Assembly (NCBI RefSeq): GCF_016026235.1
Contig: NZ_CP065613.1
Strand: one strand, 5' to 3'
From: Escherichia coli
Lineage (GTDB): Bacteria > Pseudomonadota > Gammaproteobacteria > Enterobacterales > Enterobacteriaceae
DNA: 64,000 bases
Shown here: piece after piece, positions 3,417 to 3,671 of the stretch
Layout of the letters: each line of letters starts with the position of its first letter
Position numbering within the stretch: the first letter of the stretch is position 1
Program-made: the position numbers and the translations under genes
The notes under the pieces: model-generated
What the model was told of the DNA's origin: nothing
Databases searched by the model: none
What the model saw: the letters and a program-made list of their open reading frames with translations, nothing else

Positions 3417-3671
3417 ATGGAACAAAAAACATTATCAGCTGAACCCCGCAGGTCATTTTCAAATGAGTTTAAACTTCAAATGGTTACACTGGCTTTACAA
3501 CCAAGGGGTTCTGTTGCCCGTATTGCCCGGGAGCATGATATCAATGATAATCTTCTGTTCAAATGGCTCAGGCTCTCGCTGATCAAAGGGCGTATATCAC
3601 GGCGTCTTCCGTTAACGAACTCTTCTGGCATTGGCGTTGAATTATTACCTGTGGAGATGACGCTGGGATGA
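3417..3671 (+). pseudogene. IS3-family (IS2-like) transposase OrfA N-terminal HTH fragment
   Basis: Translation RRSFSNEFKLQMVTLALQPRGSVARIAREHDINDNLLFKWLR matches the IS3/IS911 HTH_Tnp_1 pattern and aligns with IS2 InsC; the ORF ends at 84 aa with no OrfB following. Confidence 0.55.

Follow-up and report, generated by a model that had tools for sequence, protein, structure and literature searches.

A truncated IS66-family relic adjoins ISSso6 at one end of a ~127-kb inversion in Escherichia coli

The window analysed here, a stretch of 64,000 nt from Escherichia coli (contig NZ_CP065613.1 of RefSeq assembly GCF_016026235.1), carries on its plus strand at 3417–3671 an open reading frame of 84 codons, ATG to TGA, whose product is entered in RefSeq as WP_001327567.1 and annotated 'transposase'. 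Residues 11–55 of this product match the Pfam domain HTH_Tnp_1 with an E-value of 6.8e-13, so that the initial annotation, which had described a truncated HTH ORF of transposase type, was correct to this extent, the product measuring 84 aa compared to 141 aa for the TnpA protein of IS682. Its assignment to an IS2-like OrfA of the IS3 family could not be upheld. In the NCBIfam ranking, models of IS66 TnpA came first (NF038385, E 7.4e-18; NF047595, E 1.2e-15) and reached 58–65 bits, compared to 14–21 bits for the IS2 and IS3 models; the scores of NF038385 and NF047595 stay under the full-length cut-offs because the protein is truncated. From the IS3 side, transpos_IS3 gave 20.6 bits (E 2e-4; cut-off 160), a weak signal which is due to the generic nature of the HTH, and PRK09413, the model of IS2 TnpA, gave a non-significant match of 13.9 bits (E 0.058; cut-off 229). 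With this weak generic HTH signal as the sole trace of IS3, the segment is essentially free of IS3-family matches. Direct comparison with IS682 TnpA showed 82% identity across residues 1–82, HTH included. The 84-codon ORF corresponds to residues 1–82 of a TnpA accessory protein of the IS66 family, not to an IS2/IS3 OrfA.

At the DNA level, 3331–3673 is 88.9% identical over 343 nt to IS682 of E. coli O157 (L003 3501–3842), the limits of which were set in that sequence by its 8-bp duplication TCTTTCTC. The alignment starts at the exact tip of IS682, which reads GTAAGCGTAAAC in IS682 and GTATGCGTAAAC at 3331; both tips align base for base, and the latter shows one mismatch to the IS66 tip 5'-GTAAGCG. 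On the plus strand, this IS682-like left end comprises a terminal repeat (GTATGCGTAAACCGACTGCTGTATGTAGCC...), a leader and the first ~85 codons of tnpA. Taking the TnpA homology of the ORF and the start at an IS682 tip together, the ORF can thus be identified as the 5' portion of a tnpA gene of the IS66 family, still accompanied by its own left repeat. With IS682 and ISEc43 the relic shares a terminal repeat beginning GTA(A/T)GCGTAAAC...; unlike them, it keeps only the first ~85 of 141 tnpA codons, lacks tnpB and the DDE body of tnpC, and bears a right repeat that is not the one of IS682. An IS2 OrfA is comparable in being a small N-terminal HTH_Tnp_1 protein at the left end of an insertion sequence, whereas the locus discussed here displays neither an IS3-type terminal repeat nor a frameshift-coupled orfB, and its DNA homology is to IS66 elements. 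No IS3-family orfB (DDE, rve) of the same element, reached via a −1 frameshift, follows the ORF; downstream lie IS66 tnpC and then ISSso6.

It should be noted that an Rfam scan of 3000–5700 returned no family at its threshold, the sole signal being a sub-threshold match to the AfaR sRNA on the minus strand at 3208–3434 (33 bits, gathering score 100). Positions 1–110 of the AfaR model align to the antisense of the IS66 left repeat and tnpA leader, and the match is explained by this shared IS66 left-end sequence. The alignment suggests that the AfaR sRNA as described may itself be transcribed from an IS66-type left end.

The right end of the element had been reported as missing, with the remnant ending about 130 bp before the tandem repeat. 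Both statements have to be revised, since IS66 sequence reaches 3805 and the repeat starts at 3804. The plus-strand segment ~3674–3805, which we assign to a second IS66-family lineage, comprises the last ~30 tnpC codons and the right repeat, and within it 3690–3805 is 88–90% identical to annotated IS66 tnpC 3' ends with their right terminal repeats (L004, L012 and L013). The tnpC remnant has its natural stop TAA at 3774–3776 and contains two in-frame stops; read in frame it gives ...REVIMKIND*PSNRVHELLH*NFSAVK*, which matches the C-terminus ...REVIVKLNDWPSNRVHELLPWNFSAVK* obtained from our own translation of the related tnpC sequence in L004. Of the 26-nt right terminal repeat, 23 nt are found at 3783–3805, the final TAC having been separated from them by ISSso6. 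Without this insertion, the allele ends in ...GAGCGCTTAC (L001 4809), an IS66-type right repeat tip, and in E. coli 042 and Nissle 1917, which carry no IS110 element at this position, the sequence continues to ...CTCGGAGCGCTTAC, beyond which lies the intergenic region ahead of an ascorbate-type PTS operon. With both termini present, the relic has a size of ~478 bp. Neither tnpB nor a full DDE tnpC is present downstream of the tnpA remnant, and with only ~30 tnpC codons left, interrupted by in-frame stops, the locus is therefore a relic and no functional member of the IS66 family.

The relic resides between the aldose-epimerase/fucP/rbsK sugar cluster and the ascorbate-type PTS operon, a site it occupies in about one quarter of complete E. 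coli genomes, and the spacer holds four fossil IS fragments, two of the IS3 and two of the IS66 family. The two IS3-family fragments are non-contiguous and lie between the aldose-epimerase terminator and the IS66 relic, on the strand opposite to the ORF. The fragment at 3141–3217 (minus strand) stems from an orfA 3' region; its minus-strand reading contains ...LQCLLGKKTMEVEILKEAVEY... and runs ...LLGKKTMEVEILKEAVEY, it is overlapped by an ORF at 3125–3202 (minus strand), and it is 90.9% identical over 77 nt to L006 1992–2068, a stretch within an annotated IS3-family transposase gene. The fragment at 3217–3326 (minus strand; L005 2001–2112) is an IS911/ISEc52-like orfB 3' end, 81–82% identical to the last ~104 nt of the ISEc52 and IS911 transposase genes. 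Elsewhere, the same spacer has received a whole IS2 (strain 23CRST036, L028), ISEc23 (CAVp367, L029) and, in plasmid-captured copies, IS26. The earlier description of the locus as a recurrent insertion hotspot is thus appropriate for a spacer with many insertions, but a generic hotspot does not explain the adjacency of ISSso6, which sits in an IS66 tip.

At least 80% of 3150–3805 is present in 1,307 of the 5,426 complete E. coli genomes, and the right end in 1,501 of them, while in none of these 1,307 and 1,501 carrier genomes is ISSso6 found at the relic. Since more than 1,300 genomes contain an identical relic without the IS110 element, its interior had been lost before ISSso6 inserted, and the two events are unrelated. 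It had been proposed that either the IS110-family element or a deletion removed the rest of the insertion sequence; of these, the deletion is retained, whereas a role of the IS110 element is contradicted by the relic without ISSso6 in 042, Nissle 1917 and ~1,300 others.

These observations bear directly on other origins that could be proposed for the ORF. A truncated IS2-like OrfA, which lost OrfB and its right end by IS110 insertion or a linked deletion, could be argued from the HTH_Tnp_1 domain common to IS3 OrfA proteins, from the weak IS3 model match and from the genuine IS3-family fragments directly upstream (3141–3326). However, these fragments lie on the opposite strand and are separated from the ORF, the IS66 TnpA models outscore those of IS2 and IS3 by far, the DNA follows IS682 with 89% identity from its repeat tip on, an IS66 right end lies downstream, and the identical relic persists in more than 1,300 genomes without any IS110 element, rendering this origin extremely improbable. 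A different proposal would be domestication of the 84-aa HTH protein, which might, for instance, act as a small DNA-binding regulator or repress IS66 elements. The HTH is intact, the product has its own RefSeq entry, and hundreds of genomes share the same unbroken ORF; a sceptic could take this for conservation, whereas we attribute it to recent common ancestry. Against domestication, the ORF is frameshifted or has lost its N-terminal part, the N-terminal half of the HTH, in the diverged alleles L028 and L029, and the stop codon of the window allele is itself the product of a one-base indel near the junction (GGG compared to GG, with GG inferred for L028 and L029). The broken frame in these alleles and the indel-made stop therefore show the neutral decay of a pseudogene and not a conserved gene, and we consider domestication very unlikely.

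Concerning the origin of the IS66 relic itself, its left and right repeats share only their first 7 nt, GTA(A/T)GCG, and the 8-mers flanking it in E. coli 042 differ (ATAAAAGT left, GATTAATC right), so that no 8-bp target duplication surrounds it. The lone near-complete relative of the right end (L013 873–3619) has a left repeat, GTAAGCGCTCCG..., which pairs with its own right repeat, and the left part of this element shows no similarity to 3331–3673. Taking the non-cognate repeats, the differing 8-mers and the unrelated left part of the L013 element into account, 3331–3805 would represent a chimera of two IS66-family elements, joined after deletion, with one degenerate element serving as the full-length relative of the right end in this comparison. 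Two candidates for a complete right-end parent, H174 and H176, proved to be only relics adjoining iha. Alternatively, a single IS66 element could have lost everything between tnpA codon ~85 and tnpC codon ~−30 in one deletion; its ends would then be cognate, and the relic might be a non-autonomous, MITE-like derivative open to mobilisation in trans. This would account for two pieces of the same family in the same orientation and the right order with repeat tips at both ends, and identical relic copies do exist on plasmids of E. coli, Citrobacter and Klebsiella. These copies, however, are 100% identical, share one IS26 junction located 1 nt inside the left repeat and have kept the chromosomal PTS-side flank; they are therefore a single captured chromosomal fragment and not products of transposition, and independent MITE-like mobility of the relic was rejected. 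Given further that cognate IS66 repeats, as in IS682 and the L013 element, match over 12–20 nt, and that the target duplication is absent, descent from one element, such as an unsampled IS66 member with both of these ends, appears unlikely, and we favour the fusion of two.

That IS-derived sequence adjoins an element of the IS110 family, as already stated in the initial annotation, was confirmed: ISSso6 (IS110 family, IS1111 group; minus strand) starts at 3806, right after the IS66 sequence, and extends to 5485, with these limits set by the convention of 7-bp and 3-bp extensions. Elements annotated 'IS110-like element ISSso6 family transposase' match it with 99.9% identity. Its sub-terminal inverted repeats, 13–14 nt long, are located at 3809–3821 and 5466–5478, and the terminal extensions, AGGCAGT (7 bp) and ATC (3 bp), fit the IS1111 convention. 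The transposase gene runs from 5360 to 4232 on the minus strand, and its product matches PF01548 and PF02371, as expected for a DEDD transposase; downstream of it lies a non-coding region, 4231 to 3806, of 264 nt, or 425 nt when a duplication is included. DEDD transposase, sub-terminal repeats, extensions and downstream non-coding region together constitute the structure of the IS1111 group. In the window, a run of five T at 5092, compared to six in the near-identical L025, shifts the transposase reading frame and leaves ORFs of 164 and 269 aa; the difference reflects either a genuine inactivating mutation or an error in sequencing the homopolymer.

The duplication is a perfect tandem repeat of 2 × 161 bp (3804–3964 and 3965–4125) at the transposase-distal end of ISSso6, and the first two bases of its unit (3804–3805) are the CT common to the target and ISSso6. 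L025 and L026 carry this duplication; L027 and L032 lack it. A duplication of 339 bp, independent of the first, affects the ISSso6 end on an EIEC pINV plasmid (L023 603–1104), and the junctions of both duplications are internal ...GCCA(G)-CT sequences resembling the transposase-proximal tip ...CTGC-CT. This resemblance suggests that the duplications may have arisen by transposase-mediated recombination at a pseudo-end rather than by slippage.

Within the relic, ISSso6 is inserted 3 bp inside the right repeat, GTA^AGCGCTC. Among the ~10 ISSso6 sites sampled, several of which come from related EIEC plasmids whose flanks may be recombinant, seven of the ten distinct transposase-distal flanks are terminal repeat tips of IS66-family elements (the window, L015, L016, L018, L020, L021 and L023), always with the insertion at GTA^AGCG. 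The other three are situated outside IS66 repeats, upstream of nhaA, in sopA and beside a porin gene. The first two contain GTAAGCGC, and the porin-adjacent site, which is used by a 98%-identical ISSso6 variant, reads GTAAGTG. In K-12, the uninterrupted site upstream of nhaA, GTGAGCGCTTACAGCC, contains GAGCGCTTAC, identical to the tip of the relic repeat.

According to Siddiquee et al. 2024 (PMC11187229), the seekRNA of IS1111 elements is encoded in the non-coding region downstream of the transposase gene, with the segment pairing to the top strand located 5' of the one pairing to the bottom strand. In ISSso6, candidate guide segments are found on the minus strand within 4130–4171, namely AGCGCUU (4171 to 4165) and CGUAAG (4135 to 4130). 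In the target GTAAGCGCT, AGCGCUU matches the bottom strand and would pair with the top one, and for CGUAAG the reverse applies. The two target matches are short (7 and 5–6 nt) and overlap at the insertion point, and CGUAAG lies 36 nt downstream of AGCGCUU, on the opposite side of a predicted 6x6 internal loop. As far as sequence and predicted fold can tell, ISSso6 thus resembles the seekRNA and bridge-RNA systems of the IS110 and IS1111 elements in its downstream non-coding region, in two short matches to both target strands, in their order and in their overlap at the insertion point. A 20-nt inverted repeat (4028–4047 with 4195–4214) brackets the guide region, with a duplicate arm at 3867–3886, and the junction of the tandem duplication lies 4 nt past the second guide segment, CGUAAG.

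A seekRNA with these segments would recognise the IS66 repeat tip. In view of the seven out of ten flanks at IS66 tips and the guide-like segments, the adjacency of relic and ISSso6 is best explained by a sequence-directed, probably RNA-guided insertion of ISSso6 into the IS66 repeat, and not by ISSso6 having truncated the insertion sequence. A comparable preference is displayed by IS4321 and IS5075, whose targets are the terminal repeats of Tn21-family transposons (Partridge and Hall 2003, as cited in PMC11187229). Like ISSso6, these belong to the IS1111 group, possess sub-terminal repeats and a downstream non-coding region, and enter the terminal repeat of another mobile element at a constant position. 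The target of ISSso6, however, is the IS66 tip (GTA^AGCG) and not the 38-bp Tn21 repeat, its conservation is limited to 7–8 nt, and chromosomal mimics are used as well (upstream of nhaA and in sopA). The searchable literature yielded no account of the target of ISSso6; in the searchable text and supplements of Siddiquee et al., the element is mentioned solely in an identity table and in the list of transposase sequences.

On its other side, the window ISSso6 does not continue into the PTS-side flank of the relic; the plus-strand sequence at 5486–5640 lies upstream of nhaA and represents the second half of another ISSso6 target site. The relic resides at 5.097 Mb in E. coli 042 and nhaA at 17.5 kb in K-12, and EIEC-type genomes carry ISSso6 between mokC and nhaA. 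Contig UGFA01000002.1 (GCA_900449985.1; L025), which is 99.99% identical to window positions 1–9935, contains the reciprocal junction ~127 kb away (L032). There, LacI, PTS IIA/IIB/IIC and ...CCGATTAATCGTA are joined to AGGCAGT-ISSso6, followed by mokC, dnaJ and dnaK, and this second ISSso6 copy is in inverted orientation and carries the TAC missing from the relic. Since both junctions are present on one contig, an inversion has taken place between two inverted ISSso6 copies, which accounts for the position of the window ISSso6 between relic and nhaA; this ISSso6 is the recombinant copy at one end of a ~127-kb inversion. Homologous recombination would be the simplest mechanism. The window arrangement occurs in no complete E. 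coli RefSeq genome. Downstream of nhaR, the minus strand at 7810–9468 carries an ORF of 319 aa and a fimbrial usher fragment, truncated to 228 aa, which adjoins IS1 in the matching contig L025, so that the fimbrial operon appears degraded. Degraded fimbrial operons are typical of Shigella and EIEC.

We propose a model in which an IS682-like left end (3331–3673) would first have been joined by deletion to the right end of another IS66 lineage (~3674–3805), the ORF of this old relic decaying ever since as a pseudogene. In a Shigella/EIEC-like lineage, the right repeat of the relic was subsequently entered by ISSso6, 3 bp from the tip, a second copy inserted into the natural tip mimic upstream of nhaA, and recombination of the two inverted copies would then have inverted ~127 kb. 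We regard it as highly probable that the locus is such a non-functional chimeric IS66 relic, hit afterwards by ISSso6 at its right repeat, with nhaA placed on the far side of ISSso6 by a subsequent inversion between two copies. Beyond this locus, it appears rather probable that ISSso6 is a specialised parasite of other insertion sequences, in which a seekRNA tuned to the universal IS66 tip GTAAGCG would turn every IS66 copy or relic into a landing pad, pairs of ISSso6 would drive large inversions in Shigella and EIEC, and tandem duplications such as those of 161 bp and of 339 bp on pINV would be generated by the transposase at internal sequences similar to the transposase-proximal end.

The relic as such is an ordinary, already annotated IS remnant whose family had been misassigned. 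For annotation, the value of the analysis therefore lies in correcting the family to IS66 and in describing as a fixed, decaying relic an ORF that RefSeq labels just 'transposase'. The terminal repeat of the relic accounts for the position of ISSso6, and the window ISSso6 marks an endpoint of the ~127-kb inversion, which makes it relevant for synteny comparisons of Shigella and EIEC. Finally, a natural target of 7–8 nt for an IS1111-group element, together with its chromosomal mimics, provides a small but concrete data point on the targeting of RNA-guided transposases.
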